NCBI GenBank assembly: GCA_045586595.1
Contig: JAZNAQ010000022.1
Location: 1,605-65,604, forward strand
Source: Eubacteriales bacterium
GTDB taxonomy: Bacteria > Bacillota > Clostridia > Oscillospirales > JAAYXM01
Direction: 5' to 3'
DNA: 64,000 bases
Shown: positions 9,774 through 63,186 of the stretch, piece by piece
How the letters are laid out: each line of letters begins with the position of its first letter
How positions within the stretch are numbered: position 1 is the first letter of the stretch
Made by a program: the position numbers and the translations under genes
Notes under the pieces: generated by a model
Database searches by the model: none
Seen by the model: only the letters and a program-made list of their open reading frames with translations
What the model was told of the DNA's origin: nothing

Positions 9774-9849
9774 GGGGGCGTAGCTCAGCTGGGAGAGCGC
9801 TGCGTTCGCAACGCAGAGGTCAAGGGTTCGATCCCCTCCGTCTCCACCA
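9774..9849 (+). tRNA. tRNA-Ala (anticodon CGC), CCA encoded
   Basis: Cloverleaf folded by hand: acceptor GGGGGCG/CGTCTCC with the G3:U70 alanine identity pair, D arm GCTC-AGCTGGGA-GAGC, anticodon arm CTGCG-TTCGCAA-CGCAG, T loop TTCGATC, then ACCA. Confidence 0.9.
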
Positions 9850-32436: not shown

Positions 32437-32513
32437 GGGCCTTTAGCTCAGTTGGCTAGAGCTCCCGGCTCATAACCGGATGGTCCTGGGTTCGAGTCCC
32501 CGAAGGCCCACCA
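32437..32513 (+). tRNA. tRNA with anticodon CAU (elongator Met or lysidine-type Ile2; not distinguishable by eye), CCA encoded
   Basis: Acceptor GGGCCTT/AAGGCCC, D arm GCTC-AGTTGGCTA-GAGC, anticodon loop CTCATAA, T loop TTCGAGT, then ACCA. Confidence 0.88.
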
Positions 32514-34160: not shown

Positions 34161-34208
34161 AAAAACTGCAACAATAAGAAGCCCTATTACGGGCCCTTAT
34201 TATTGCAG
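34161..34208 (-). terminator. Intrinsic terminator after the GGDEF gene
   Basis: On the minus strand, a roughly 18-bp stem CTGCAATAATAAGGGCCC...GGGCTTCTTATTGTTGCAG followed by U5. Confidence 0.75.
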
Positions 34209-34327
34209 CTGGACTGGCATAGTATAAAACCTTAGCCTCTTGGCTTTGCGTCGCCGACTTTCGCCGGTTTTGCCAAATGTTCAATTTTCACCAGTTTATC
34301 ACACTAAAGCATTTTTGTCAAACACTT

Positions 34328-49255: not shown

Positions 49256-49789
49256 TTAGTCTTTGTAGTTAATTCCGCAGTTGATTGCCTTTAAGTTTAC
49301 TTCTAAAAGGTTTGCGCGCTTTGCAGAAACAACCTTCTTGAGTGAATCCTCAATATTGTCAGTTCTCATGCCGCTTTCCTTCATGAGCTTACCTGTGATA
49401 ATCATGTTTGCGAGCGTCGGTGCCTCCATAGCCTGTGCAAGCTGTGTTGCTGGGATATAGAACACCTTGACGTCGTCTCTCTTAACCTTGCGCTCGATAA
49501 GAGTTGAGTCAACGATAATCATACCGCCGGGTACAACTGCATCCTCATACTTATCAAGTGACGGAAGGTTCATTGCAACAAGAATATCGGGGTTTGAAAC
49601 AATGGGTGAGCCTACAGGGTCATCAGAGAGGATAACGCTGCAGTTTGCTGTGCCGCCGCGCATCTCCGGACCATAGGACGGAAGCCAGCTGAGCTGTTTT
49701 CCCTCAAGAAGGCCTTTATATGCAAGGAACTTACCCGCGAACAGGATGCCCTGGCCTCCAAAGCCCGCTAAAAGCAACTGTGTTGTCAT
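49256..49789 (-). CDS. 2-oxoacid:ferredoxin oxidoreductase, gamma subunit
   Basis: About 177 aa from [20 protein letters not shown]. That start is 2 nt after the beta stop, so the track ORF's 27-codon extension overlaps the beta subunit. Confidence 0.85.
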
Positions 49790-49791
49790 AA

Positions 49792-50544
49792 TTATGCTTC
49801 CTCCTTCTGTGCGCTCTTGTCTCTGTAAACACCGAGCGGATAGTATGGAATCATCTTCTCGTCTACCCACTTGAGAGCGTCATTCGGAGTCATACCCCAG
49901 TTTGTCGGGCAGGTAGAGACAACCTCGATAAGAGAGAATCCCTTTCCCTCAACCTGATTGCGAAACGCCTTGAGAATTGCCTTACCCGCAGCCTTTACAT
50001 TTTTAACGCTGTTTACTGCAACACGCTCAATATACTCAGGTCCGTCGAGAGTTGAGAGCATTTCGCTGACTCTTATCGGGTAGCCTGCTGTTGTTACATC
50101 ACGCCCGTACGGAGATGTCTGAGTTACCTGGCCGGGGAGTGATGTCGGGGCCATCTGGCCTCCGGTCATACCGTAGATTGCGTTATTTACAAATATAACG
50201 GTAATGTTTTCATTACGAGCTGCTGCGTGGACTGTCTCTGCCATACCGATTGAGGCAAGGTCTCCGTCGCCCTGATATGTAAAGATAACATTCTCAGGGA
50301 AAGCTCGCTTAAGGCCCGTTGCGACAGCCGGAGCACGGCCGTGAGCCGCCTCTACCATATCGCATGAAAAGTAATCATATGCCATAACAGAGCATCCGAC
50401 CGGTGCGACACCGATTGTCTTGCCCTCTACGCCGAGTGCGTCAATCGCCTCAGCAACAAGGCGGTGAATAATGCCGTGGGTGCAGCCCGGGCAGTAGTGA
50501 AGCGGTGCGTCTGTTAAGCTTTTCGGTTTTTCAAATACTACCAT
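49792..50544 (-). CDS. 2-oxoacid:ferredoxin oxidoreductase, beta (TPP-binding) subunit
   Basis: 250 aa with YCPGCTHG and the GDGD TPP motif. Confidence 0.88.
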   Translation of the reverse strand: MVVFEKPKSLTDAPLHYCPGCTHGIIHRLVAEAIDALGVEGKTIGVAPVGCSVMAYDYFSCDMVEAAHGRAPAVATGLKRAFPENVIFTYQGDGDLASIGMAETVHAAARNENITVIFVNNAIYGMTGGQMAPTSLPGQVTQTSPYGRDVTTAGYPIRVSEMLSTLDGPEYIERVAVNSVKNVKAAGKAILKAFRNQVEGKGFSLIEVVSTCPTNWGMTPNDALKWVDEKMIPYYPLGVYRDKSAQKEEA

Positions 50545-51605
50545 TAGTTGCTACCTCCCTTGACTTCTTTAATTTTTTCAAGAACCTGCTCAGGTGACGG
50601 AATCATGCCGCCGACGCGGTTACAGAGATGAACAGGCTTTTTGCAGTCTGTTGCAAGGCGGATGTCTTCAATCATCTGGCCCATTGAAAGCTCAACGCTG
50701 ATAAATGCCTGTACCTTATCTGCAGCCTCAGCAAGCGGTGCCTTCGGGAACGGCCATACGGTAATCGGGCGAATCATACCGACCTTTATACCCTCTTTTC
50801 GTGCTGCAACAACTGCGTTCTTTGCAACACGGGCAGCGATACCGAATGCGACAACACAGTACTCTGCATCATCCATCATAAAGCTTTCGTATCTTGCCTC
50901 TGTCTCTTCTATAAGCTTATATCTCTCATAGCGCTCGATATTCTTCTGCTCGAGCTCTTCAGGCTTTAAGTAGAGCGAGTTTATGATGTTATGCTCGCGC
51001 TTCATATCAGTTCCGGTTACTGCCCACGGCTTATCTGTTGTATTAACGCTTTCTTCAGGAAGCTCAACCGGCTCCATCATCTGCCCCATTGTGCCGTCTG
51101 CAAGAAGCATAGCAGGCATACGATATTTTTCGGCAAGCTCAAACGCAAGAGCTGTCATATCAGCCATTTCCTGAACGGATTCAGGTGTAAGGACTATCAT
51201 GCGATAGTCGCCGTGACCTCCGCCCTTTGTTGACTGGAAGTAGTCTGACTGAGACGGCTGGATGCCGCCGAGACCGGGGCCGCCGCGCTGTACGTTAACG
51301 ATAAGTGCCGGAAGGTCTGCACCTGCAATATAGGAGATACCCTCCTGCTTAAGCGAGATACCGGGGCTTGAGGAGGAGGTCATAACACGCTTGCCTGTAC
51401 CCGCAACTCCGTATACCATATTAATAGCCGAGATTTCACTCTCTGCCTGGAGGAATGTCCCCCCGATTTTCGGCATTCTCTTTGCCATGTATGCCGCAAC
51501 CTCTGTCTGCGGTGTTATCGGATAACCGAAGTAATGGCGACAGCCCGCACGGATAGCGGCTTCTGCGATTGCTTCGTTACCTTTCATCAAAACTTTTTCT
51601 GCCAT
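50544..51605 (-). CDS. 2-oxoacid:ferredoxin oxidoreductase, alpha subunit
   Basis: About 353 aa from MAEKVLMKGNEAIAEAA, with RBS GAGGTG 8 nt upstream. Typical VOR/KOR alpha N-terminus. Confidence 0.88.
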   Translation of the reverse strand: MAEKVLMKGNEAIAEAAIRAGCRHYFGYPITPQTEVAAYMAKRMPKIGGTFLQAESEISAINMVYGVAGTGKRVMTSSSSPGISLKQEGISYIAGADLPALIVNVQRGGPGLGGIQPSQSDYFQSTKGGGHGDYRMIVLTPESVQEMADMTALAFELAEKYRMPAMLLADGTMGQMMEPVELPEESVNTTDKPWAVTGTDMKREHNIINSLYLKPEELEQKNIERYERYKLIEETEARYESFMMDDAEYCVVAFGIAARVAKNAVVAARKEGIKVGMIRPITVWPFPKAPLAEAADKVQAFISVELSMGQMIEDIRLATDCKKPVHLCNRVGGMIPSPEQVLEKIKEVKGGSN

Positions 51606-51617
51606 TTTCCGCACACC

Positions 51618-51824
51618 TCACTTTTCTACCTTGATTACGCAGTCCGGGCACATAGTTGCACAGAATGCGCAAGCGATACATTTCTCCTGGTCGGTTATCT
51701 CCGCCGGAGAATGACCCTTTTTGTTGATTTTGTCTTTTGCAAGACGGATTATCCCCTTCGGACAAGCTGTAACACAAAGGCCACAACCCTTACAAATGTC
51801 CGAGTCGAATGTTACCTTAGCCAT
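51618..51824 (-). CDS. 2-oxoacid:ferredoxin oxidoreductase, delta subunit (2x[4Fe-4S] ferredoxin)
   Basis: 68 aa with two CxxCxxCxxxCP motifs. Confidence 0.88.
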   Translation of the reverse strand: MAKVTFDSDICKGCGLCVTACPKGIIRLAKDKINKKGHSPAEITDQEKCIACAFCATMCPDCVIKVEK

Positions 51825-51845
51825 AATAACACTCCTTTTTCTGTA

Positions 51846-52514
51846 TTAAAATAATTTTTCTTGTAATTTGAGTTTAAAGAAAGACGTATTTTGCGCCTGC
51901 TCGCAAAGATTCTTTTCTGATGTTGTCATAACAACGGGAACGCCGGATATTTCCGCAAGTTCTTCAGCAAATGCCAAGGTGTTCACAACATCGTCGATTG
52001 TCGTCTCGACCCCGATATTGGAGTTATTGACAATCCCCGTAAACGGAATCCCCGATGCTGTTTCTATCTCGCGAAAAACCTCAAGCGCTTCTTTTGCCGT
52101 ACGCGTAAGCGGGCGATAGAAGTTTACAACGAACAGGTTTGCAAAGTCGTTCTCTTCTAAAATATACGGACGGTATCTGCCAAGAGCATACGCACCGCGG
52201 TCATCGCCGCCTATGTCCATAACAACCCGGCGGTCTCTCCTCTGCACAAGGCCATAGACCTCCTGCGGAAGCGAGGGCAAATCTACGCTTGTGTTTGCAA
52301 ACGGTAGCGCAATAACCTCAACACCTGCATCGGTAAGCTCTTTTAAGCTATCCTTTGTGCGGAAATACGGATTTACAATATCAATATCAGCGATACTTAC
52401 GGGAAAACCTTTCTCGCTTAAGTGGAGCGCATAGTTTACCGCGATGTTGGTTTTGCCGCTGCCGTAGTGGCCGCAGAAAAGAGTAACTCTTTTATTTAAA
52501 GCGTGATTGTCCAA
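51846..52514 (-). CDS. MinD/CooC-like P-loop NTPase, function unknown
   Basis: 222 aa with a deviant Walker A (GHYGSGKTN). Embedded between ilvE and the delta subunit, overlapping ilvE by 19 nt. Confidence 0.5.
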   Translation of the reverse strand: MDNHALNKRVTLFCGHYGSGKTNIAVNYALHLSEKGFPVSIADIDIVNPYFRTKDSLKELTDAGVEVIALPFANTSVDLPSLPQEVYGLVQRRDRRVVMDIGGDDRGAYALGRYRPYILEENDFANLFVVNFYRPLTRTAKEALEVFREIETASGIPFTGIVNNSNIGVETTIDDVVNTLAFAEELAEISGVPVVMTTSEKNLCEQAQNTSFFKLKLQEKLF

Positions 52515-53563
52515 TTAAACTTATCCTCACACTTGCCCCACTGAATACCTGTGATGGTGTCATAGAGCTTCTGGCTGACCTCGCCTATTGTGTTGTTATT
52601 GATAAGCATAACATCGTCTTTATAACGAAGCTTACCAACCGGCGAGATTACGGCTGCCGTGCCTGTTCCGAAGCACTCTTCAAGCTTGCCGCTCTTCTGT
52701 GCATTTAAAAGCTCCTCAACGCTTATTTTGCGTTCCTCAACCTCATATCCCCAGGACTTACATACCTCAATTACCGAGTTTCTTGTGATACCCGGCAGAA
52801 TGCTGCCGGAGTGCTCCGGGGTTACGATTTTGCCGTCAATCTTAAAGAAGATGTTCATAGCACCGACTTCTTCGATGTACTTTCTCTCTACACCGTCAAG
52901 CCAGAGAACCTGTGAATAGCCCTCGTCGTGAGCCTTGACCTGAGCCGCAAGAGAAGCTGCGTAGTTACCGCCTGTCTTTGCAAAGCCCATACCGCCCTTG
53001 ACAGCGCGGACATAGTCGTCTTCAATCCAGATACCTACAGGAGCAAGGCCGCTTGCGTAATATGCGCCTGACGGAGAAAGGATGATGATAAAGAGATATG
53101 TCTTTGACGGTGCAACACCGAGGAACTCGTCTGTTGCGATGATAAACGGTCTTATGTAGAGCGATGTGCCGGGGGCTGTGGGTATCCAATCCTCATCAAC
53201 CTTGACAACTGCTTTACATGCCTCTACAAAAAGCTCCTCAGGAAGCTGAGGGATGCAAAGACGCTCGTTTGTGGCGTTTGTTCTCTTTGCGTTCATATCA
53301 GGTCTGAAAAGGCGAGCCTTTCCGTCACGTCCTCTGTATGCCTTAAGGCCTTCAAACATTTCCTGACCGTAGTGGAAAACCATTGCGGACGGGTCGAGAG
53401 AGAGCTTCTCATACGGGACTATTCTCCCGTCGTGCCAGCCTTTTCCCTCGGTATAGTTCATAACAAACATATGGTCTGTAAACACCTTGCCAAAGCCGAG
53501 CTTTGACTCATCTTCTGGTCGCTGTTTAGGATTTGTTGTTTTTGTTATCGGAAAATTATACAT
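52496..53563 (-). CDS. ilvE: Branched-chain amino acid aminotransferase
   Basis: 355 aa, fold-type IV PLP enzyme (long IlvE form) with motifs FEGLKAY, GGNYAASL and GITR. Confidence 0.9.
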   Translation of the reverse strand: MYNFPITKTTNPKQRPEDESKLGFGKVFTDHMFVMNYTEGKGWHDGRIVPYEKLSLDPSAMVFHYGQEMFEGLKAYRGRDGKARLFRPDMNAKRTNATNERLCIPQLPEELFVEACKAVVKVDEDWIPTAPGTSLYIRPFIIATDEFLGVAPSKTYLFIIILSPSGAYYASGLAPVGIWIEDDYVRAVKGGMGFAKTGGNYAASLAAQVKAHDEGYSQVLWLDGVERKYIEEVGAMNIFFKIDGKIVTPEHSGSILPGITRNSVIEVCKSWGYEVEERKISVEELLNAQKSGKLEECFGTGTAAVISPVGKLRYKDDVMLINNNTIGEVSQKLYDTITGIQWGKCEDKFNWTITL

Positions 53564-53588
53564 TTCAAATCTCTCCTTTTTATTTATA

Positions 53589-55877
53589 TCACAGCTTATT
53601 TCTCTGAATCTTTCCGCTTACTGTCTTGGGCAGCTCGTCACGGAATACGACGAGGCGCGGATATTTATACGGAGCTGTATGCTCTTTAACATAGTTCTGA
53701 ATCTCTTTCTTGAGTTCTTCTGTAGGCTCTGTGCCCTTTGTAAGAACGATACTTGCCTTTACTATCTGGCCGCGAACCTCATCAGGTGCTGCAGAAACGC
53801 CACACTCAAGGACGTACGGAAGCTCCATGATAACGCTTTCAATCTCAAACGGCCCGATGCGGTAGCCGGATGACTTGATAACGTCATCAACACGGCCGAC
53901 ATACCAATAGAAGCCGTCCTCATCACGCCATGCGGTATCTCCTGTGTGATAGTATCCGTCGTGGAGAACCTCAAGAGTTTTTTCCTCGTCGCGGTAGTAC
54001 TCAACAAAGAGGCCGCAGGGCTTGCCGTTCTTTACGTTAATTACGATTTCGCCGGTCTCACCGACAGCTACGGGCTCGCCTTTGTCATTTACAAGCTCAA
54101 CATTGTATATCGGAGCAGGCTTACCCATAGAACCAATTTTGTGCGGAGCACCTATCATGTTACCGATAATCATTGTGCTCTCTGTCTGGCCAAAGCCCTC
54201 AATTATCTGAAGGCCTGTTGCCTTTTCAAATTGCTTATAGACCTCGGGGTTTAAAGCCTCGCCCGCTGTTGACATATGCTTGACAGACGAGAAGTCATAC
54301 TGCGAAATATCTTCTTTAACAAGCATACGAAGCATTGTAGGCGGTGCGCAGAAGGTCGTGATGTTATGACGCGCAAACATCGGAAGAATTTCTTTCGCAT
54401 CAAAGCGGTCAAAGTCATAAACGAATATTGCCGCCTCGCAAAGCCACTGGCCGTAGAGCTTACCCCACATAGACTTTGCCCAGCCTGTATCTGAAATTGT
54501 GAAGTGTAGCCCATCAGGGTCAACATTGTGCCAATACTTTGCTGTATGGAAGTGACCGAGCGGATATTTATGGTTGTGTGCCGCAATCTTCGGGTATCCG
54601 GTAGTGCCGGATGTAAAGAACATCAGAAGCAAATCATCGCCGCACGGTGAATCATCGTTTCTTTCAAAGTGTGAGCTGTATAGCGGGTACTCGTCAGCAA
54701 AGCTTCTCCAACCCTCACGCTCGCCACCGACTATAATCTTATGTATAAGCTCAGGGCAGGTCTTTGCCGCCTCATCTACCTGTGCGGTACACTCTCCGTC
54801 TGCCGTGCAGAGGATTGTGTTTACGCCCGCCGCCTGAAAACGATACTCAAAGTCATGAACCTGAAGCTGGTTTGTGGCGGGGATAGCGATTGCGCCGAGC
54901 TTATTAAGACCAATCATAGCATACCAGAATTCGTAATGACGCTTCAGTACGAGCATAACTCTGTCGCCTTTTTTGATACCGAGTGACTTAAAGTAGTTTG
55001 CGCATCTTGCTGATTCACGCTTTACATCCTCAAAAGTAATGCGGCGTTCTACTTTATTCTTGTCGATATGAAGCATCGCAAGCTTATCAGGCTCGCGTTC
55101 TGCCAAAGCATCTACAAGGTCGAAAGCAAAGTTAAAGTTTTCGGTGTTTTTAAACTCAATCTTTGTAGGTGTTCCCTTTTCGTTCTCTTCAACAGAAATA
55201 TACTTACGGTAAATTCTGTCCTTAGTGTCACGCTTGACCTCGCGGGGATCGTCGATAGCTTTTATCGGAGTAAGCTCAGGAATGGGCTCACCTGACGGAT
55301 TCAAAACGATTGCATAGAAAACACAATCACGACCGTTTACGGCAATCATACCGTGTGGGGTATTACTGTCAAAGTAAATGCTGTCACCCGCGCGGAGAAC
55401 CTCGCGGTGCTCGCCTATCTGAACCATAAGCTCGCCCTCAACGACTATGTCACACTCCTGACCATCGTGAGTGGTAAGCTCAATATCGCGGTTTTGCGCG
55501 CTCTCATCATAAGCACATCTGACGTAGAGCGGCTCTGCGATTCTGTTCTGAAAAGCATATGCAAGGTTATAATATGTCATGCCATGAGCATTTGCTATTT
55601 CCTGCCCCAAACCGTTTCTTGTAACCGTAAACGATTTAAGAGTAGGGCTGTAGCCCTCAATAATATCTGTTACGTTAACACGCAATGCAAGCGCGCAACG
55701 GTAAAGGAATGCAAAGTTAAGGTCTTGCTTGCCTTCTTCACACAAAATATACTCTTCAACCGAAACATCGGTCTTTTCGGCCATCTCTGCCGGGGTCAAC
55801 CCCTCAATCTCACGAAGTTCGCGTATACGAGATGCCATCTCTTGAATTTTGTAGTCAAGTCCTGATATAGGTTGCAT
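53589..55877 (-). CDS. XRE-HTH + cupin + medium/short-chain acyl-CoA synthetase (AMP-forming) fusion, paralog 1 (behind the Val T-box)
   Basis: 762 aa from ATG 55877 (MQPISG..., RBS GAAAGGATGG). HTH (LTPAEMAEKTDVSVEEY), cupin (GDSIYFDSNTPHGMIA), then AMP-binding motifs FTSGTTGYPK, YHTGDTAWRDEDGFYWYVGRVDDVIKSSGYRIGPFEIE and SGKIQR. Confidence 0.85.
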   Translation of the reverse strand: MQPISGLDYKIQEMASRIRELREIEGLTPAEMAEKTDVSVEEYILCEEGKQDLNFAFLYRCALALRVNVTDIIEGYSPTLKSFTVTRNGLGQEIANAHGMTYYNLAYAFQNRIAEPLYVRCAYDESAQNRDIELTTHDGQECDIVVEGELMVQIGEHREVLRAGDSIYFDSNTPHGMIAVNGRDCVFYAIVLNPSGEPIPELTPIKAIDDPREVKRDTKDRIYRKYISVEENEKGTPTKIEFKNTENFNFAFDLVDALAEREPDKLAMLHIDKNKVERRITFEDVKRESARCANYFKSLGIKKGDRVMLVLKRHYEFWYAMIGLNKLGAIAIPATNQLQVHDFEYRFQAAGVNTILCTADGECTAQVDEAAKTCPELIHKIIVGGEREGWRSFADEYPLYSSHFERNDDSPCGDDLLLMFFTSGTTGYPKIAAHNHKYPLGHFHTAKYWHNVDPDGLHFTISDTGWAKSMWGKLYGQWLCEAAIFVYDFDRFDAKEILPMFARHNITTFCAPPTMLRMLVKEDISQYDFSSVKHMSTAGEALNPEVYKQFEKATGLQIIEGFGQTESTMIIGNMIGAPHKIGSMGKPAPIYNVELVNDKGEPVAVGETGEIVINVKNGKPCGLFVEYYRDEEKTLEVLHDGYYHTGDTAWRDEDGFYWYVGRVDDVIKSSGYRIGPFEIESVIMELPYVLECGVSAAPDEVRGQIVKASIVLTKGTEPTEELKKEIQNYVKEHTAPYKYPRLVVFRDELPKTVSGKIQRNKL

Positions 55878-55905
55878 AATAAGCCATCCTTTCACGGAAC
55901 GAATT

Positions 55906-56191
55906 AAAAAGCACTCGTCCCAAAGCTGATAATCTTTGAGACGAGTGTCAGAATTTCTAATACACCCGCGGTACCACTCAAATTGCGCTTTACGCGCCAC
56001 TCAGACTCAAACAAGCCGTATGCATTTACGCAGCAGTCACGGAAAGGTTCTACTCGCCTTATATAAGACTTTCTTCCTCTCAGCTCAGAAGCTACAGACA
56101 CAAGTAACAATGCCGATAGTTCACACCCACCACTATCTCTCTGAAGGACTGTACACTCACGCTCTCTTCGTCAACGCCTTTATATTCATTT
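55906..56191 (-). promoter_or_regulatory. T-box riboswitch, specifier GUA (Val)
   Basis: Promoter TTGACA (56226-56221), 17 nt spacer, TATAAT (56203-56198). Stem I has the GA motif UUGACGAAG, AGAGAG bulge and a GGUG distal loop. Specifier loop GUCU-GUA-G-CUUC (codon at plus 56093-56095). CCGUGA F-box. T-box UUUGAGUGGUACCGCGGG (55965-55984). Terminator CACUCGUC...GACGAGUG plus U5 (55906-55947). Confidence 0.85.
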
Positions 56192-56278
56192 GTGGTTATT
56201 ATATATCAGTCAAGGGAATTTGTCAATACCTATTTGTGGCATATTATGAGTTTTTATGCGAGTTTTTGCGATTATCTA

Positions 56279-58546
56279 TCAAAGTTTATTCCTCTGAATT
56301 TTACCGCTTATTGTCTTGGGGAGTTCATCACGGAATACAACAAGGCGCGGGTATTTATACGGCGCTGTATGCTCCTTGACGTAGTTCTGGATTTCTTTCT
56401 TAAGCTCTTCCGTCGGCTCCGTCCCCTTTGTAAGAACAATGCTTGCCTTTACAATCTGACCGCGGAGCTCATCGGGAGCTGCAGAAACGCCGCACTCGAG
56501 AACATACGGAAGCTCCATAATGACACTCTCAATCTCACACGGCCCGATGCGGTAACCGGATGATTTGATAACATCGTCAATTCGGCTGACATACCAGAAA
56601 TAGCCGTCCTCATCACGCCATGCGGTATCTTCTGTGTGGTACATTCCGCCACGCATACACTCTTCCATTTTTTCTTCATCATCAAGATACTGTCTGAAGA
56701 GGCCAACAGGAGTTCCGTTATCAAGGCGTACAACAATTTCACCGACCTCACCATTTGCAACCGGGTTGCCGTCGAGGTCAACAATATCAATATCATACTG
56801 CGGAGATGCCTTGCCCATTGCGCCTACGCGCGGAGTCGTACCATAGAGGTTTGCGATAACAAGGGTTGTTTCTGTTTGGCCGAAGCCCTCCATTATCTTA
56901 AGGCCTGTTGCCTTTTCAAATTGCTTATACACTTCGGGGTTGAGTGCCTCTCCTGCTGTTGTCATATGGTGGATGGAGGAAAGGTCGTATTTTGAAAGGT
57001 CTTCTTTTATGAACATACGAAGCATTGTTGGCGGCGCGCAGAAGGTTGTGATGTTGTATTTTGCAAACATCGGGAGAATTTCGTTTGCAGAAAAGCGGTC
57101 AAAGTCGTAAACGAATACTGCCCCCTCGCAGAGCCATTGGCCATAGAGCTTACCCCAGAGGGATTTGCCCCAGCCTGTGTCAGAGATTGTAAAGTGGAGC
57201 CCATCACGCTCGCAGCAGTGCCAGTATTTTGCAGTCACAAAGTGACCAAGGCCGTATGTGTGCTTATGCTCGACCATTTTCGGGTTACCTGTTGTTCCCG
57301 ACGAGAAGAACATAAGAGCCGCCTCATCGCCGCAGGGGGTATCATCGCTTCTGTCAAAGTGGCTTGAGAACATTGCATATTCGCTGTCAAAATCATGCCA
57401 GCCATCGCGATGACCGCCGACAAGTACAAGAGTTTTTACACTCGGGCATTTCTTTGCTGCAGCCTCTGCGATTGTAGCCGTATCATCATCAGCGGTGCAG
57501 ACAACAGCCTTTACGTTTGCCGCCTCATAGCGGTATACAAAGTCGTGGTCCTTAAGCTGATGTGTTGCAGGGATTGCAACAGCACCGAGCTTATGAAGCG
57601 CAACCATCGCAAACCAGAACTGATAATGGCGCTTGAGAACAAGCATTACGCGGTCACCCTGACCGATGCCGAGTGACTTGAAATAGTTTGCACATCGTGC
57701 CGATTCTTTTCTTATATCATCAAATGTAAAGCGGCGCTCAACCATGTTCTTGTCAACATGGAGCATCGCAAGCTTATCGGGAGTTTTCTTTGCAATTTCG
57801 TCGACAACATCGAAGCCGAAGTTGAATGTATCAGTATTCATAAACTCGATTTTTTCGAGTACGCCCGGCTCGCTCTCTGTACATTTTACAAACTTCTCAC
57901 ACGCGAGCTTTGTTGCCGGACGAAGAGATACAACGCTCTCGCGCACTTCTTCTTCCTTTGCATCCTCTCCAGGGAGAACTACTGCACAGAATACGCAGTC
58001 TTCACCGTTTACAGCTATCATACCGTGCGGTGTGGAGCTGTTATAGTAGATGCTGTCACCCTCGCTTAAAACTTCGGTGTGAGTGCCGACCTGAACCTTG
58101 AGCGAGCCCTTGAGAACGAGGTCAAACTCCTGCCCGCTATGCTTTGTAAGGTGTATCGGCTTATTCTGCTGCTCCTCAGAGTATTCATATCTTACCCAAT
58201 AGGGCTCAGCTATTTTGTTTTTAAACTTCGGGGCAAGGTTTGAAATGCTGATACCCTCCTCTTTAGCCGTCTCCTGCCCCTTGCCCTTACGAGTTACGGT
58301 GTAAGAGGAAAGATGCGCCGTGCGGCCCTCCAAAAGTTCTGTAAGCTCAATACCAAAGGCAAGCGCGCATTTGTGAAGAAACGAGAACGGCATATCCGCC
58401 GCACCGTTTTCGAACTTTTTGTATTCATCAAGTGTTACTTCGGTTTTCTCTGCCATCTGGTTTGCAGTCATACCCATAACCTCACGCATCTCACGGATGC
58501 GGGCTGCAACCTCGCCGAGTTGTGTCATAGTTTTTTCTGTGCTCAT
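56279..58546 (-). CDS. XRE-HTH + cupin + acyl-CoA synthetase (AMP-forming) fusion, paralog 2 (behind the Ile T-box)
   Basis: 755 aa from ATG 58546 (MSTEKT..., RBS AAAGGAG). Same architecture as paralog 1, with the C-terminal ~85 aa nearly identical. Confidence 0.85.
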   Translation of the reverse strand: MSTEKTMTQLGEVAARIREMREVMGMTANQMAEKTEVTLDEYKKFENGAADMPFSFLHKCALAFGIELTELLEGRTAHLSSYTVTRKGKGQETAKEEGISISNLAPKFKNKIAEPYWVRYEYSEEQQNKPIHLTKHSGQEFDLVLKGSLKVQVGTHTEVLSEGDSIYYNSSTPHGMIAVNGEDCVFCAVVLPGEDAKEEEVRESVVSLRPATKLACEKFVKCTESEPGVLEKIEFMNTDTFNFGFDVVDEIAKKTPDKLAMLHVDKNMVERRFTFDDIRKESARCANYFKSLGIGQGDRVMLVLKRHYQFWFAMVALHKLGAVAIPATHQLKDHDFVYRYEAANVKAVVCTADDDTATIAEAAAKKCPSVKTLVLVGGHRDGWHDFDSEYAMFSSHFDRSDDTPCGDEAALMFFSSGTTGNPKMVEHKHTYGLGHFVTAKYWHCCERDGLHFTISDTGWGKSLWGKLYGQWLCEGAVFVYDFDRFSANEILPMFAKYNITTFCAPPTMLRMFIKEDLSKYDLSSIHHMTTAGEALNPEVYKQFEKATGLKIMEGFGQTETTLVIANLYGTTPRVGAMGKASPQYDIDIVDLDGNPVANGEVGEIVVRLDNGTPVGLFRQYLDDEEKMEECMRGGMYHTEDTAWRDEDGYFWYVSRIDDVIKSSGYRIGPCEIESVIMELPYVLECGVSAAPDELRGQIVKASIVLTKGTEPTEELKKEIQNYVKEHTAPYKYPRLVVFRDELPKTISGKIQRNKL

Positions 58547-58597
58547 TGCATTTTCTCCTTTCAAATTAAAAACCTTAAAATTTTTAATTGAATAACA

Positions 58598-58879
58598 AAG
58601 ACTCGTCTCAAAGCTTTTATACTTTGAGACGAGCCGAATAAACTATATCCGATACCCGCGGTACCACTCAAATTGCGCTTTACGCGCCACTCAGGCTCAA
58701 ACAAGCCTTATGCATTAACGCAGCAATCACGGAAAGCGTCTACTCGTCAAATCAAACTTTCGGGCTTCCAGCTCAGAAGTGATAGGCAAAAAACATTTCG
58801 CTACCGGGATTACACCGTCCCCGACTCTCTGTAAGCTACCTTGCTTTTCCGTCTTCGTCATAGCCTTTGCTATTCAATT
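58598..58879 (-). promoter_or_regulatory. T-box riboswitch, specifier AUC (Ile)
   Basis: Promoter TTGACA (58914-58909), 17 nt spacer, TAAACT (58891-58886). Stem I has AUGACGAAG, AGAGAG and a GGUGUAA distal loop. Specifier loop GCCU-AUC-A-CUUC (plus 58781-58783). T-box UUUGAGUGGUACCGCGGG (58655-58674). Terminator GGCUCGUCUCAAAG...CUUUGAGACGAGUC plus U run (58598-58635). Confidence 0.85.
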
Positions 58880-58924
58880 GAATACAGTTTACACCTGTTT
58901 TTTCTCTTTGTCAAGACCTTTTTG

Positions 58925-61384
58925 TTATTTTTTAAGACCAAGAATTTTCTCTGATTCCTCACGCATTTTATATTTAAGAATCTTACCCGCGGCGTTCATT
59001 GGGAACTCATTGACAAACAAGAAATATCTCGGCACCTTATGGCGCGCGATAGACGCGTTTCCGAACTCGCGCATCTCTGCCTCGTCGGAGGTTTCGCCCT
59101 TATGGAGAATAATCCACGCGCAACATTCCTCACCGTAACGCTCATCGGGAACTCCTACAATCTGAACATCTCGTATCTTCGGATTTGTCAGGTAGAACTC
59201 CTCAATTTCACGCGGATAGAGGTTTTCGCCACCGCGGATAATCATGTCCTTAAGTCGGCCTGTTACCTTATAATATCCGTCAGGCGTACGGCAACAAATA
59301 TCACCGGAGTGAAGCCAGCCGTCAGCATCAATAGTCTGTGCTGTTGCGTTGGGCATTTTGTAGTAGCCCTTCATTATGTTAAAGCCTCGCGCAACAAACT
59401 CGCCGCTCTCACCGTCAGGAAGCTCCTCACCCGTTTCAGGATCAATGACCTTACACTCAACACCCGGGAAAGCACTTCCGACAGTCTCGACCCTGTGGTC
59501 GAGGTCTTCATTAACCTCTCCCATGGTACAGCCGGGAGAAGCCTCAGTCTGGCCGTAAACGGAGATAATCTCGCGCATATTCATCTCAACAGAGGCACGG
59601 CGCATAAGGTCAGCAGGGCAGTTTGCTCCCGCCATGATGCCCGTACGCATATATGAAAAATCTGTCTTTTCAAAGTCAGGGTGGTTAAACATTGCGATAA
59701 ACATAGTAGGAACACCGTTAAAGCATGTGATATGCTCATCGTTAACGCACGCAAGTGACGATTTCGGTGAGAAGTACGGCATCGGGCAAAGCGTGCCGCC
59801 GTGAGTCATCATTGACGTCATCGAAAGCACCATTCCGAAGCAGTGGAACATCGGCACCTGAATCATCATTCGATCGGCAGTGGAAAGGTCCATCCTGTCA
59901 CCGATTGTCTTGCCGTTGTTTACAATATTTCTGTGTGTGAGCATAACGCCCTTCGGGAAACCGGTTGTACCTGAGGTGTATTGCATATTACATACATCGT
60001 CAGGCTTTACCATTGATGCACGACGGCGTACCTCCTCCTTCGGAACAAGTGCCGCGCGGTCAAGCATCTGCCCCCATGTAAGACAGCCGTGCATAGAGAA
60101 GCCAGCAGTAACAACATTGCGTAAAAACGGCAACTTTTTTGAGTAAAGCGCATCGCCCGGCTTCATATTTTCAAGCTCGGGGCAAAGCTCCTGGATGATT
60201 TCGCGGTAGTTTATATCCTTGCAGTCCTCAATCATAACAAGTGTATGGGTGTCAGACTGCTTTAGCAGATACTCAATCTCGTGGATTTTATATGCTGTAT
60301 TAACTGTTACAAGAACTGCCCCTATTTTAGTTGTTGCCCAGAAGGTTATGAACCACTGAGGAACATTTGTAGCCCATACTGCAACATGGTCGCCCGCTTT
60401 TACGCCGAGCGAAATAAGCGCCGCAGCGCACTCGTCGACATCACGCCGAAACTGTGAATATGTCCTTGTATAGTCGAGCGTAGTATACTTAAACGCATAC
60501 TGGTCAGGATAAGTCTCCGCCATGGTATCAAGCACCTGCGAGAAGGTCTTATCTATAACATCATACTTTTTCCATACAAATGTGCCTGTTCCCGCACGGT
60601 TATAATACAACTTATCATACTCTTTCTTCTCGCGTGAAAGGTTTGCAATATAGTTTGCAAAATGAGTAAGAACGATGTCTGCATCATTTATCTCGTCATT
60701 CCATGCAACCGATACAAAGCCGTCGAAGTTAAGAGACGAAAGTGCGTTTATAAACTCGGTTACAGGAAGAGAGCCTTCACCGATGAGGACGTTTTGTCCG
60801 TCCTTCTTATCGCCGAGGCGTACATACTTAATATATGCGCCAAGGTTTGTAATTGTTTTCTCCGCGCTCTCGCCTGCGCCGAAGTATGTTTCGCGGACAT
60901 TCCATGACGCGCCAACTACTGCAGAAGAAAAGAAATTGATAATATCAATGACATTCTCGGTTGCAGAGAGGTGTCCTGCAGTTTCAAGAAGAATCTGAAT
61001 ATCTGTTTCTTCAGCGCGTTTGATTGCCGGAGCGAGCTTTTTTGAAAGTTCTTCGTTTGACATTTTCTCCTCTATCCTGAGGATAATGCGCTCAACACCG
61101 GCGCTTGAAGCCATATTGACATATTTGAGTATTTCATCTGCGCTTGCATAATCACTTCCTGCATCATGAGGATATACAAGAGCGGATACCTCAAGCCCGC
61201 GATTTACGAGTTTTCTCTTTGCATCGGCCACTCTGTCACTGCGGAGAATGCTGTCGTAGTGCTTCTTTCTTTCACCAAGAGCGTCATAAATCTCAAACCC
61301 CGAATAACCGTAGTCATATGCATAACGACACATATCGAGAAACGACGGGCGGTTTACATTTTTTGTCGAAAAGGTAAGCTTCAT
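58925..61384 (-). CDS. Xylose-isomerase-like TIM-barrel domain fused to a FadD-type AMP-forming acyl-CoA ligase
   Basis: 819 aa from ATG 61384 (MKLTFSTK; RBS GAGGAGGA lies inside the upstream gene's end). The N-terminal ~260 aa are AP-endonuclease-2/sugar-isomerase-like. The C-terminal part carries YTSGTTGFPKGV, YGQTE, GWLHSGD and RGGENLYPREIE. Confidence 0.75.
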   Translation of the reverse strand: MKLTFSTKNVNRPSFLDMCRYAYDYGYSGFEIYDALGERKKHYDSILRSDRVADAKRKLVNRGLEVSALVYPHDAGSDYASADEILKYVNMASSAGVERIILRIEEKMSNEELSKKLAPAIKRAEETDIQILLETAGHLSATENVIDIINFFSSAVVGASWNVRETYFGAGESAEKTITNLGAYIKYVRLGDKKDGQNVLIGEGSLPVTEFINALSSLNFDGFVSVAWNDEINDADIVLTHFANYIANLSREKKEYDKLYYNRAGTGTFVWKKYDVIDKTFSQVLDTMAETYPDQYAFKYTTLDYTRTYSQFRRDVDECAAALISLGVKAGDHVAVWATNVPQWFITFWATTKIGAVLVTVNTAYKIHEIEYLLKQSDTHTLVMIEDCKDINYREIIQELCPELENMKPGDALYSKKLPFLRNVVTAGFSMHGCLTWGQMLDRAALVPKEEVRRRASMVKPDDVCNMQYTSGTTGFPKGVMLTHRNIVNNGKTIGDRMDLSTADRMMIQVPMFHCFGMVLSMTSMMTHGGTLCPMPYFSPKSSLACVNDEHITCFNGVPTMFIAMFNHPDFEKTDFSYMRTGIMAGANCPADLMRRASVEMNMREIISVYGQTEASPGCTMGEVNEDLDHRVETVGSAFPGVECKVIDPETGEELPDGESGEFVARGFNIMKGYYKMPNATAQTIDADGWLHSGDICCRTPDGYYKVTGRLKDMIIRGGENLYPREIEEFYLTNPKIRDVQIVGVPDERYGEECCAWIILHKGETSDEAEMREFGNASIARHKVPRYFLFVNEFPMNAAGKILKYKMREESEKILGLKK

Positions 61385-61385
61385 C

Positions 61386-62774
61386 TTAATCCTCCTCAAA
61401 CACTATCTTATTCAGCGCGTTGATATACGCTCTGATGCTTGCTGCCACAATATCAGTAGAGATTCCGTTGCCGGAATAGAGTTTTCCATCCACGCGAAGC
61501 TTTACAACAGCCGAGCCAAGAGCCTCCTTGCCCTCAGTAACGGCATGGATCTGGAAATCGTCAAGCTCATAGTGATAGCCTATGCACTGTTCTATTGCAC
61601 GAAATGCTGAGTCTACAGCGCCGTCACCCATACTTACGCCGCAGAGAATTTCGTCACCGCACTTGAGCGTAACCTGTGACATGGCACTTGTGAGATTGCC
61701 GCAGTTTGTGGTGTAGCTCTCAAGGTGATATGTTGACGGTGCCTGCATGGCAGAGCTTGCTATAAGTGCCTCAAGCTCCTTCGCGCCGACTGTGCTCTTC
61801 TTCTCGCATACCTGCACAAGAGCACGGTATACATTTCCGTTATCCTCATCGGAAAGGTCATATCCGAGAACCTTTGCAGCCTGTGCAACATCTGAAAGCG
61901 TACTGTCGCAATCAAGAACGATTTTTTTCTTCTCACTTGCAGCATCTGCGCTCTCGTAAGCATCATGATTTATCTTTCGGAGCATCTCATCTACACTTGA
62001 ATGTATCTGGGTAGCTACAATAGAAGTGGATATGCCGAGAGCTTCGCCTCTTGCGCTTATTGCGTCAGAGAGCTCGCCTACAGACAAAACATTCTTTCCT
62101 GCCATCGCACACTTAAGCCCGTCAGCCCCTGCCTTTACCGCAGCAATAGCAGTTGCAACAGCCATATTGATACTGTCGGATACCTGAACATATACCGATG
62201 TGTTTACCTGAGCCTTTATTGCAGCGGTAAGCTCTGCAATCTCCTCAGGAAGTGAAACTCCGGCGTCGTCGCAGATAGTTACGATTCCTGCGCCGCTTGC
62301 CTCAGCCGCTTTAACTGCATTAATAATGAAGTCACGGTCTGCACGAGTTGCATCAAGTGCAACAAATTCGACATCGGGGCAGAATTTCTTTGCCTCGGCT
62401 ACAAGCTCTTCAATCTTTGTAAGCATCTTATCTGCCTTGAGATGATATATATACTCCATCTGCACCGTAGAAGTAGGGAGGGCTACCTGAAGGCGCGGCT
62501 TTGCTGCATCTTTTATACACTCCCATGCGACAGACACCTCGTCTGCCGTAAAGCCGACAGGGAGAGCGACTGCGCTGCTTTTAACGTTTGATGCAATCGT
62601 TTTATAAATAATTGTATCCTCGCGAACATTCTTTATTGGCGCAAGCTCAACAGCATCCGCACCGAGAGAATCTGCACACGCCGCTATAGCTGTTTTCTCT
62701 CTGAAGAGCAGTGAAACCTCACGGTCTTGTGAAAGCTCCTTTAACGTGATGTCAGTAACTAAAATTTTCTTCAT
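61386..62774 (-). CDS. 2-isopropylmalate synthase (LeuA) homolog lacking the catalytic and metal-binding residues but retaining the C-terminal LeuA regulatory domain
   Basis: 462 aa, collinear with recalled B. subtilis LeuA. DTTLRDGEQ is replaced by DITLKELSQ, HCHDD by QVSDS, and GIGERAGN by GKNVLSVG. The C-terminus (TEGKEALGSAVVKL...GISTDIVAASIRAYINALNKI) matches the LeuA_dimer domain. Confidence 0.7.
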   Translation of the reverse strand: MKKILVTDITLKELSQDREVSLLFREKTAIAACADSLGADAVELAPIKNVREDTIIYKTIASNVKSSAVALPVGFTADEVSVAWECIKDAAKPRLQVALPTSTVQMEYIYHLKADKMLTKIEELVAEAKKFCPDVEFVALDATRADRDFIINAVKAAEASGAGIVTICDDAGVSLPEEIAELTAAIKAQVNTSVYVQVSDSINMAVATAIAAVKAGADGLKCAMAGKNVLSVGELSDAISARGEALGISTSIVATQIHSSVDEMLRKINHDAYESADAASEKKKIVLDCDSTLSDVAQAAKVLGYDLSDEDNGNVYRALVQVCEKKSTVGAKELEALIASSAMQAPSTYHLESYTTNCGNLTSAMSQVTLKCGDEILCGVSMGDGAVDSAFRAIEQCIGYHYELDDFQIHAVTEGKEALGSAVVKLRVDGKLYSGNGISTDIVAASIRAYINALNKIVFEED

Positions 62775-62820
62775 AGGTAAAACCCCTTTCTCTGCAATTT
62801 AAATTTTCAGATGTTCGACA

Positions 62821-63127
62821 AAAACGCTTTCATCTCTTTGTTATCCTTTAATAACTCAAAGAGACGAAAGCGTTAAAACTCAAGTATTTAAACCTTTCGC
62901 GGTACCACTCTTTTTCATCCTACGGCGAGGATGCACCTCAGGTGCTGACACACCTTGACTCTGTTACGGGAGCTCCCGTCCGCCCCTACTCTCTTTCAAT
63001 TTCACGGCAGCCGCTCCGTGGTGAGTTCAACGAGGCTAACCCAATGCCTTGCACCAACCGGCATCTCTCTGCGCGGGTATAAGCTTTTCGCATACTATTC
63101 CACATCATCGCGTTTGTTTTCAATTTG
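62821..63127 (-). promoter_or_regulatory. T-box riboswitch, specifier CUC (Leu)
   Basis: Promoter TTGACA (63162-63157), 17 nt spacer, TATAAT (63139-63134). Stem I has GCGAUGAUGUGG, the AGUA S-turn, AGAGAG and a GGUGCAA distal loop. Textbook specifier loop GAA-CUC-A-CCAC (plus 63023-63025). T-box AGAGUGGUACCGCGAAAGG (62896-62912). Terminator AACGCUUUC...GAAAGCGUU plus U4 (62821-62874). Confidence 0.9.
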
Positions 63128-63186
63128 GTAAACATTATATCACTGCATTTTTTGTTTGTCAACAGTTTTCAAAAAATTTTATTAAC

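Follow-up and report, generated by a model that had tools for sequence, protein, structure and literature searches.

HTH-cupin modules fused to T-box-controlled acyl-CoA ligases in Clostridia: architecture, relatives, and candidate roles

Two HTH-cupin ligases behind valine and isoleucine T-boxes

In a 64,000-nucleotide stretch of contig JAZNAQ010000022.1 from an Eubacteriales bacterium (assembly GCA_045586595.1), hereafter called the window, two adjoining open reading frames (ORFs) on the minus strand, lig1 and lig2, encode paralogous enzymes of identical layout. Each consists of an XRE-type helix-turn-helix (HTH), a Cupin_2 barrel, a linker of about 40 residues, and an AMP-forming acyl-CoA ligase of the MACS type (Table 1). 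An earlier interpretation made without database searches, referred to here as the sequence-only reading, had proposed that these proteins may be trigger enzymes that activate a branched acid and also bind DNA in response to it. The fusion is confirmed below, and the HTH-cupin module is shown to accompany one clade of ligases in fused and in split form and to carry marks of selection; the acidity of its HTH and the operator searches speak against DNA binding, and the reading that we favour is an action of the module on or with the ligase.

The open frame of lig1 extends upstream to a GTG at position 56000, overlapping the T-box leader described below. Because an identical protein of the same length is on record (100%; P0269), the start is placed at MQPISG and not at this GTG. 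For lig2, a TTG at 58564 is a possible alternative start further upstream. Pfam recognizes the ligase in both proteins (AMP-binding, 218.7 bits in lig1 and 217.3 in lig2; AMP-binding_C, 74.9 and 76.5 bits) as well as the cupin (Cupin_2, 48.7 and 42.9 bits, cut-off 27.2). The HTH of lig2 exceeds the HTH_19 cut-off of 30.2 bits, and that of lig1 stays under the cut-off of every HTH model (HTH_19 26.1, HTH_3 20.9, HTH_31 20.2 bits). AlphaFold2 (AF2) models predict five helices in both proteins, at residues 6-25, 29-35, 40-47, 55-65, and 69-74 in lig1. These models are mediocre, with a pLDDT (predicted local distance difference test) of 65 and 71 and a pTM (predicted template modelling score) of 0.40 and 0.54; in the lig1 linker the pLDDT falls below 50 at residues 196-212. 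The in-frame fusion of an HTH and a cupin to a MACS-like ligase, as the sequence-only reading had described it, is thus borne out by Pfam and by the predicted helices, and the cupin motif that it had noted is present in both proteins, as GDSIYFDSNTPHG in lig1 (residues 164-176, nucleotides 55350-55388) and as GDSIYYNSSTPHG in lig2 (residues 163-175, nucleotides 58022-58060).

The closest solved structure for the enzyme part is 3ETC, the Macs protein of M. acetivorans (MacsMa), in an end-to-end alignment of 639.7 bits (query residues 20-535 of 537). MacsMa prefers 2-methylbutyrate, and in its pocket a glycine replaces the tryptophan of Acs, with Trp259 as the alternative tryptophan (PMC10455477). 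When the acyl pockets are compared with those of characterized MACS enzymes, these hallmarks are found in both proteins: the sequence GFGQTE, with Gly for the Trp of the Acs acetate pocket, and the sequence KYW, with the alternative pocket Trp. The A10 lysine (SGKIQR) is retained as well, the C-termini reading ...PKTVSGKIQRNKL and ...PKTISGKIQRNKL. The best NCBIfam model is that of MbcS (NF047394), which gives 442.8 bits for lig1 and 434.1 bits for lig2 against an equivalog cut-off of 850; on these scores, lig1 and lig2 are relatives of the S. aureus MbcS, not orthologs. Known substrates of MacsMa and MbcS are 2-methylbutyrate and isobutyrate. Unlike lig1 and lig2, neither enzyme has an HTH-cupin module or a T-box, and both catalyse their reaction without such a module (PMC10455477, PMC10026030). 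MbcS serves branched fatty-acid synthesis, whereas the context of lig1 and lig2 points to amino-acid synthesis.

Both genes are preceded by a T-box leader. The matches to RF00230 at 55934-56183 (79.6 bits, E 2.3e-16) and at 58622-58870 (79.8 bits, E 2.1e-16), both on the minus strand, span the full length of the model, with scores under the Rfam gathering score of 93. In both leaders the conserved GGUGGUACCGCG box is accompanied by a terminator hairpin and U-run, and each is served by a separate TTGACA-17-TATAAT-like promoter of the sigma-70 type, 15-35 nucleotides (nt) upstream of the T-box. A third T-box (107 bits, minus strand) precedes a LeuA-like gene and a third ligase gene, lig3, so that one cluster holds three T-boxes with three specifiers (CUC, AUC, and GUA). 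In orthologous loci, searched by nhmmer with a profile built from the leaders of the window, nearly every fused gene is preceded by a T-box. The specifier column reads ATC (Ile) in 73 of 73 lig2-type leaders, GTA or GTC (Val) in all 48 of the lig1 type, and CTC in the 18 of 18 leaders assigned to the operon of the LeuA-like gene and lig3. Since the column is fixed by gene type, the tRNA of each amino acid gates its own ligase. Leader matches, terminators, and specifier columns therefore agree with the claim that both ligases are under T-box control.

Specifiers and characterized relatives together suggest the acids involved: lig1 probably activates isobutyrate for valine, and lig2 2-methylbutyrate for isoleucine. 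The acyl-CoA products would then be reductively carboxylated by the 2-oxoacid:ferredoxin oxidoreductase (VOR) encoded downstream, and the 2-oxoacids would be transaminated to valine and isoleucine by an IlvE-like enzyme, with transcription governed by T-box leaders that each have their own promoter and cognate specifier. The T-box-regulated branched-chain genes of Firmicutes, such as the ilv-leu operon, likewise combine Ile, Val, or Leu specifiers and an antiterminator/terminator with a position upstream of cognate supply genes. Here, however, three T-boxes gate three ligase units in one cluster, and the pathway would be one of branched-acid salvage instead of de novo synthesis. For many anaerobes of the rumen and gut, branched short-chain fatty acids act as growth factors, and the cluster offers candidate genes for their activation, with one T-box per amino acid.

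Table 1. Features of the two ligase genes, their leaders and promoters, and the surrounding cluster (positions in the window)
Feature	Position	Strand	Description	Basis
lig1	53589..55877	-	Val-type paralog; 762-aa HTH-cupin-linker-MACS ligase	ORF, Pfam, P0269; orthologs in 46+ genomes
lig1 HTH	55653..55850	-	XRE-like five-helix HTH, ~residues 10-75; helix 3 V40-E47 VEEYILCE	Sub-cut-off Pfam scores, AF2
lig1 cupin	55299..55520	-	Cupin_2 barrel, ~residues 120-193; invariant H137, E141, H175; motif GDSIYFDSNTPHG	Pfam, alignments
lig1 linker	55158..55298	-	Variable acidic linker from cupin to ligase, ~residues 194-240	Low identity and conservation, AF2 pLDDT
lig1 ligase	53592..55157	-	AMP-forming acyl-CoA ligase, MACS/MbcS-like; probably isobutyrate-CoA ligase	Pfam, 3ETC, MbcS model, Val specifier
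lig2	56279..58546	-	Ile-type paralog; 755-aa HTH-cupin-linker-MACS ligase	ORF, Pfam; orthologs in ~75 genomes
lig2 HTH	58325..58522	-	XRE-like HTH, ~residues 9-74; helix 3 LDEYKKFE	HTH_19 35.9 bits; AF2 pLDDT 83-92
lig2 cupin	57971..58192	-	Cupin_2 barrel, ~residues 119-192; invariant H136, E140, H174; motif GDSIYYNSSTPHG	Cupin_2 42.9 bits, invariant columns
lig2 linker	57851..57970	-	Variable acidic linker, ~residues 193-232	Low conservation; AF2 pLDDT <50 at residues 194-217
lig2 ligase	56282..57850	-	AMP-forming acyl-CoA ligase; probably 2-methylbutyrate-CoA ligase	Pfam, MbcS model, Ile specifier, paralog-specific residues near pocket Trp442
T-box leader 1	55912..56183	-	Leader and terminator; specifier GUA (Val)	RF00230; terminator 55947-55912
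T-box leader 2	58600..58870	-	Leader and terminator; specifier AUC (Ile)	RF00230; terminator 58635-58600
Promoter P1	56198..56226	-	TTGACA-17-TATAAT	12/12 consensus; orthologs also with consensus promoter directly before T-box
Promoter P2	58886..58914	-	TTGACA-17-TAAACT	10/12 consensus
Palindrome	58871..58884	.	Perfect 14-bp palindrome TATTCAATTGAATA between P2 -10 element and T-box; probably fortuitous	Inverted-repeat search
LeuA-like gene	61386-62774	-	HMGL-like and LeuA_dimer	Preceded by promoter and Leu T-box (62857-63117)
lig3	58925-61399	-	Third ligase; N-terminal xylose-isomerase-like TIM barrel (AP_endonuc_2, residues 25-236), no HTH-cupin	Pfam
IlvE-like gene	52496-53563	-	Aminotransferase	Downstream of lig1
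P-loop gene	51846-52514	-	ParA/NUBPL-like P-loop protein	Cluster member
Ferredoxin gene	51618-51824	-	Ferredoxin	Cluster member
VOR genes	49256-51614	-	2-Oxoacid:ferredoxin oxidoreductase alpha, beta, gamma	Cluster member

Fused and split forms and their conservation

When species representatives (a single genome for each species) were scanned with an alignment covering the 239 N-terminal residues, at least 599 stretches matched, and 595 of these were confirmed. The 80 best of at least 595 come from metagenome-assembled genomes (MAGs) of gut and rumen Clostridia (Oscillospiraceae, Acutalibacteraceae, Christensenellaceae) and from two spirochaete MAGs. The closest genome is a goat-rectum Oscillospiraceae MAG whose two proteins are 89% and 91% identical to those of the window. 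All lig1 and lig2 orthologs that are not cut by a contig end are full-length fusions, with a single exception in an Eubacteriales MAG (locus L018, 10597-12399). There, a Val-type ligase without HTH-cupin starts with MLKNLRFETIK..., about 30 residues before the ligase core, and keeps its promoter and a T-box with specifier GTA. The module is thus lost in 1 of about 121 fused genes. Because this variant, MacsMa, and MbcS all do without it, the module is not needed for catalysis, and the natural deletion variant would be useful for experiments. The names given in databases are "AMP-binding protein", "cupin domain-containing protein", and "helix-turn-helix domain-containing protein" only. Judged from this distribution, duplication and fusion are old, and the architecture is generic to the enzyme clade.

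The split form was sought by an exhaustive, profile-free search with residues 1-200 of lig2, which returned 3033 relatives. The nearest non-fused relatives have about 185 amino acids, are 34-45% identical to the query, and show the same acidic helix 3. Stand-alone HTH-cupin genes lie directly upstream, on the same strand, of a gene for a ligase of about 550 amino acids, with 44-53% identity to the enzyme part of the two fusions. Among 80 metagenome loci drawn from several phyla, this pair is present in all 67 informative ones (at least 900 nt of downstream DNA), with a median gap of 20 nt and 52 gaps of 60 nt or less. The order in human-gut Bacteroides is argD, proC, HTH-cupin (184 amino acids), and ligase (551 amino acids); the HTH-cupin gene begins 30-40 nt after proC, which leaves no gap of promoter size. 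A T-box was detected in none of 86 split loci. The ligase of this Bacteroides pair (L103:2954-7252, with about 40 similar human-gut loci) is annotated as "acetyl-CoA synthetase" and is not encoded beside VOR genes, and its substrate and role may differ from those in the Clostridia cluster. In four metagenome loci (L133, L134, L155, and L158), a second and more distant HTH-cupin gene stands before a lig3-like ligase, with vorABC upstream in two of them. As lig3 of the window carries a TIM barrel instead, the N-terminal partner of the ligase varies between lineages. In the literature searched, no description was found of an HTH-cupin fused to or paired with an acyl-CoA synthetase. The parts belong to known kinds (XRE-cupin, MACS ligase, and T-box), and what is new is their combination and the likely role of the module other than on DNA.

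The two paralogs are 64% identical overall. They diverge most in the HTH, the linker (27-43% identity), and two ligase segments, and are near-identical over the last ~93 residues, in agreement with the sequence-only reading, which had described a pair diverged in the sensor region and almost identical at the C-terminus. Only 2 of 40 linker positions are conserved in both paralog groups. Recent gene conversion was considered as the source of the identical C-termini and rejected. Over the last 100 codons the proteins are 90-100% identical, whereas DNA identity is 83-86% and that of third positions 53-60%, and the longest run of identical nucleotides across the gene pair measures 30 nt. In the 46 genomes with both paralogs, the C-terminal 90 residues of lig1 and lig2 are about as similar between genomes (0.82) as within a genome (0.83), and the lig1 C-terminus of the window scores 0.92 to foreign lig2 and 0.90 to foreign lig1. 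With a mean identity of 78-91% across family members in these 90 residues, the pattern is one of strong protein-level constraint on this subdomain in the whole clade.

Where the rate of synonymous substitution (dS) is not saturated, the ratio of nonsynonymous to synonymous rates (dN/dS) is about 0.1-0.2 in the HTH and about 0.05 in the cupin; dS is saturated in most pairs, and the ratios are used qualitatively. Such values indicate that the HTH-cupin module is under purifying selection, the HTH being the fastest-evolving folded part (in lig2, dN 0.15-0.33 versus 0.06-0.18 in the ligase N-domain). Positions at least 85% conserved within each paralog group and differing between the groups are about five times denser in the module (17 in 232 residues) than in the ligase (7 in 523 residues). 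Six of them fall in the HTH, and H132/E133 and N169/D170 adjoin the His-Glu-His site of the cupin; in the ligase, 3 of the 7 (430, 445, and 447 in lig2 numbering) lie at most 12 residues from the pocket Trp442. This distribution agrees with a module that, like a sensor, has one specificity in the Val unit and another in the Ile unit. It also lends support, together with the purifying selection, to the earlier suggestion that the N-terminal module adds something specific to each pathway. The opposite case that had been envisaged, a generic and functionally silent feature of the enzyme family, agrees with the data in its first half only: the architecture is generic, but the module is under selection.

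The acidic HTH and the search for an operator

Calculated over residues 12-75, the net charge of the HTH averages about -6 (range -10 to -2) in 201 family members, with means of -6.2 in the lig2 type (n=75), -6.4 in the lig1 type (n=46), and -6.0 in the stand-alone relatives (n=80). The verified XRE-cupin repressors PuuR and SutR of E. coli K-12 have charges of +2 and +4. The family consensus of helix 3 is S-E-E-E-Y-L-A-Y/C-E, versus THSAISTIE in PuuR and SKAMLGQIE in SutR. Helix 3 of lig1 (as delimited by AF2) and of lig2 accordingly presents acidic or hydrophobic residues, including conserved Glu, where XRE repressors have base-contacting Gln, Ser, Lys, or Arg. The HTHs of 434 repressor, P22 C2, and SinR are neutral to basic and have Gln, Ser, or Lys at the contact positions of helix 3.

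The sequence-only reading had recognized in the HTH and cupin the architecture of small-molecule-responsive repressors. The layout is indeed present, but it is not specific to repressors. In Foldseek, the best fold match is 1Y9Q, a structural-genomics entry named "HTH_3 regulator", followed by about forty chains of HppE, HEPD, MPnS, and Psf4 (E 1e-9 to 1e-6, with TM-scores of 0.26-0.43 on the model of pLDDT 65). These enzymes also combine an XRE-like helical lobe with a 2-His-1-Glu cupin site, and their lobe is not known to bind DNA. They differ from the module in that they are only 12-21% identical to it, depend on oxygen, and act on phosphonates, a chemistry not expected here. From these model matches, the layout would by itself not be diagnostic of a repressor, being shared as much by enzymes. 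Fused and stand-alone relatives alike have the cupin residues H136, E140, and H174 (lig2) and the GDS...PHG motif without exception. PuuR keeps the His...Glu...His pattern too, so this triad does not discriminate. XRE-cupin factors in general (PuuR and SutR, and ErfA, PsdR, and PauR of P. aeruginosa) resemble the module in their five-helix HTH, their Cupin_2 domain with His...Glu...His, and the location of their genes beside related metabolic genes. In contrast to these factors, the module is tied to one clade of acyl-CoA ligases, by fusion or (in other phyla) by constant co-transcription, has a strongly acidic HTH with an acidic or hydrophobic helix 3, and comes without a palindromic operator that we could find; the PuuR equivalog model (NF007408) gives 27.8 and 24.4 bits, with a cut-off of 211.

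A DNA-binding trigger enzyme might be expected to leave a palindrome shared by the three promoters P1, P2, and P3, but a search of these promoters found in common just the -35 element TTGACAAA. In P1, inverted repeats with arms of at least 5 nt are absent. The palindrome TATTCAATTGAATA downstream of P2 was rejected as an operator, since it is within chance (7% of Markov-1 random sequences do as well, p ~0.07) and not conserved, the site not being palindromic in the closest orthologs (L001 and L022). A non-redundant set of orthologous promoters (68 of lig2, 47 of lig1, and 24 others) has no recurrent inverted repeat of high information content; the inverted patterns that do recur are limited to pairs of T5/A5 tracts, which are equally frequent at Leu-T-box promoters. 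The excess of palindromes over mononucleotide shuffles, which could be taken for a conserved ortholog operator, comes from A5/T5 tracts flanking the intrinsically palindromic TTGaCAA of the -35 element and is the same at Leu-T-box promoters. Upstream of the split HTH-cupin genes, too, no palindrome recurs.

Two observations on these upstream regions may be added. Sequences resembling the CodY box (AATTTTCWGAAAATT) occur just upstream of the -35 element in some orthologous promoters, as in L055 at ~7940-7960 (cATTTTCAGAAAATT), in L025, L041, and others, and in the window at 63165-63185. As a sensor of branched-chain amino acids, CodY could regulate these operons in addition, which would explain some of the palindromes. 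In L157 and L166, a putative promoter and the start codon of the split HTH-cupin gene are separated by a perfect hairpin, some 50 nt before the gene, whose 11-bp arms (TCAGGAGAGA...TCTCTCCTGA) precede a T-run; in this lineage, which has no T-box, it could serve as an attenuator in the leader.

These data bear directly on the trigger-enzyme proposal, in which a dimer of the HTH-cupin module binds an operator at its own or other promoters and responds to a branched acid or acyl-CoA, adding a layer of substrate control to the T-box. The Pfam assignments (HTH_19 and Cupin_2) and the weak full-length similarity to PuuR (27.8 bits) are what such a protein would show, and XRE-cupin proteins are local, palindrome-binding repressors (PMC7901475); yet the lig1 HTH scores under all Pfam HTH cut-offs, and a charge near -6 throughout the family, with Glu at the base-contacting positions, would make for a poor DNA-reading surface. 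Split homologs have the position of a local regulator, just before the ligase gene, and are confined to loci in which no T-box was found, but the Bacteroides gene leaves no room for a promoter of its own after proC. Six paralog-specific positions in the HTH and long palindromes centred on the -35 element in some orthologous promoters (e.g. L040 and L068) also argue for the proposal, although no palindrome is common to P1-P3 or recurs in orthologs beyond the A5/T5 tracts. There is a precedent in FadD1 of P. aeruginosa, an acyl-CoA ligase that acts as a ligand-dependent regulator and is reported to bind promoters through a leucine zipper, not an HTH (PMC12754631). The trigger enzymes BirA, PutA, and NadR similarly unite an enzyme and a regulator-like domain in one polypeptide, BirA being adenylate-forming as well, but their DNA binding has been demonstrated, whereas in lig1 and lig2 the surface predicted to read DNA is acidic and an operator could not be detected. 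A regulator present at 1:1 stoichiometry with an abundant enzyme would also be unusual. On the sequence evidence, DNA binding by the HTH is disfavoured, and we regard the proposal as unlikely; if it were true, this would be a new trigger enzyme layered on a riboswitch.

Candidate roles of the module and the surrounding cluster

The reading that we favour is that the HTH-cupin module is a former XRE-cupin regulator that has become an ancient, dedicated partner of the ligase and no longer has a working DNA-binding domain. In Bacteroides and many other bacteria the partner has a gene of its own, co-transcribed with that of the ligase; in Clostridia a flexible acidic linker joins the two in one protein. 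The cupin barrel would bind a pathway-specific small molecule at or near the invariant His-Glu-His site, and the module would tune the ligase post-translationally, by changing its activity or oligomeric state or by a protein contact of the acidic HTH-like lobe. An action on the ligase is favoured by the strictness of the pairing, the recurrence of the fusion, a linker that is flexible and variable, the acidity of the HTH, and paralog-specific residues close to the cupin site. We would give an even chance to the statement that the module acts on or with the ligase, most likely by sensing a small molecule, with the T-box handling transcription in the fused lineages; the acid substrates, the binding of a ligand, and the effect on the ligase are what we infer from the comparisons above. 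More tentative, and on balance doubtful, is the specific form in which the gating of an AMP-forming acyl-CoA synthetase takes place on the protein itself, by a dedicated, pathway-specific sensor that is a domain of the same chain in Clostridia and a subunit of its own in Bacteroides.

Several points weigh against an action on the ligase. Gene pairs of this kind most commonly consist of a regulator and, directly downstream, its target, and the restriction of the split form to loci in which no T-box was found fits a regulator that had become redundant before its fusion. The charge argument has two experimentally verified comparators, besides textbook examples, and a domain of negative net charge may still have a local basic patch: R16 and R21 are (near-)invariant, and the fused family conserves K59 (R in the lig1 type). 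Operators could vary between species or sit elsewhere in the genome. The weak AF2 models give no information on interdomain contact. Finally, the module is homologous to the XRE-cupin repressors, which are local regulators of neighbouring genes (PMC7901475).

A degenerate ex-regulator could also serve as a structural module that dimerizes or stabilizes the ligase and senses no ligand. The cupins of XRE-cupin proteins mediate dimerization (PMC7901475), the acidic HTH suggests that the ancestral function was lost, the HTH has the highest dN of the folded parts, and L018 has dispensed with the module while keeping T-box and ligase. A scaffold of this kind would, however, hardly keep the cupin His, Glu, and His and the GDS...PHG motif invariant over large distances in both fused and split forms, nor conserved paralog-specific residues beside that site; pairing in 67 of 67 split loci across phyla, and loss in just 1 of about 121 fused genes, also argue against it. 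We consider this role quite improbable. Still more so is a catalytic cupin, a metal-dependent enzyme of the HppE type that would act on the acid, the acyl-adenylate, or the acyl-CoA (for instance as an epimerase, isomerase, or proofreading hydrolase): the Foldseek matches after 1Y9Q, the invariant His-x3-Glu...His triad, and a strict 1:1 pairing or fusion typical of consecutive catalytic steps would suit it, but the TM-scores are low and the model mediocre, PuuR has the triad pattern as well, the route from branched acid through acyl-CoA to 2-oxoacid needs no added step and is opened by MacsMa and MbcS alone, isobutyrate is achiral and lig1 has the module nevertheless, and oxygen chemistry is unlikely in hosts that are presumably anaerobic gut and rumen Clostridia (judging from the source MAGs).

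Should the module indeed act as a sensor on the ligase, the salvage of branched acids into valine and isoleucine would be under double control: the T-box would respond to tRNA charging, and a former repressor module, its HTH repurposed as a protein-contact surface, would respond to a metabolite. Acyl-CoA synthetases have so far been found to be regulated mainly by lysine acetylation, and we know of no ligand-gated AMP-forming acyl-CoA synthetase. A sensor domain or subunit would thus be a new mode of control for these enzymes, and it would clearly exemplify the loss of DNA binding by an XRE-type HTH. Hundreds of gut species have the HTH-cupin partner, common human Bacteroides among them, and automatic annotation would count it as a transcription factor.

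The two ligase genes are part of a conserved branched-chain amino acid supply cluster (49256-63162, minus strand). Its order, with the LeuA-like gene, lig3, lig2, lig1, in some cases IlvE, the P-loop protein, ferredoxin, and VOR alpha, beta, and gamma, is kept in dozens of Clostridia MAGs, and the majority of the lig1 and lig2 orthologs lie in such a cluster. Just downstream of the cluster, 45579-48359 (minus strand) encodes a protein of 926 amino acids with an N-terminal HD/HD_5 domain, the remainder being without a Pfam match at E 1e-4. An Rfam scan of the whole window also revealed a c-di-GMP-I riboswitch (34201-34284, minus strand, 62.5 bits) and two tRNA genes on the plus strand (9774-9846 and 32437-32510).

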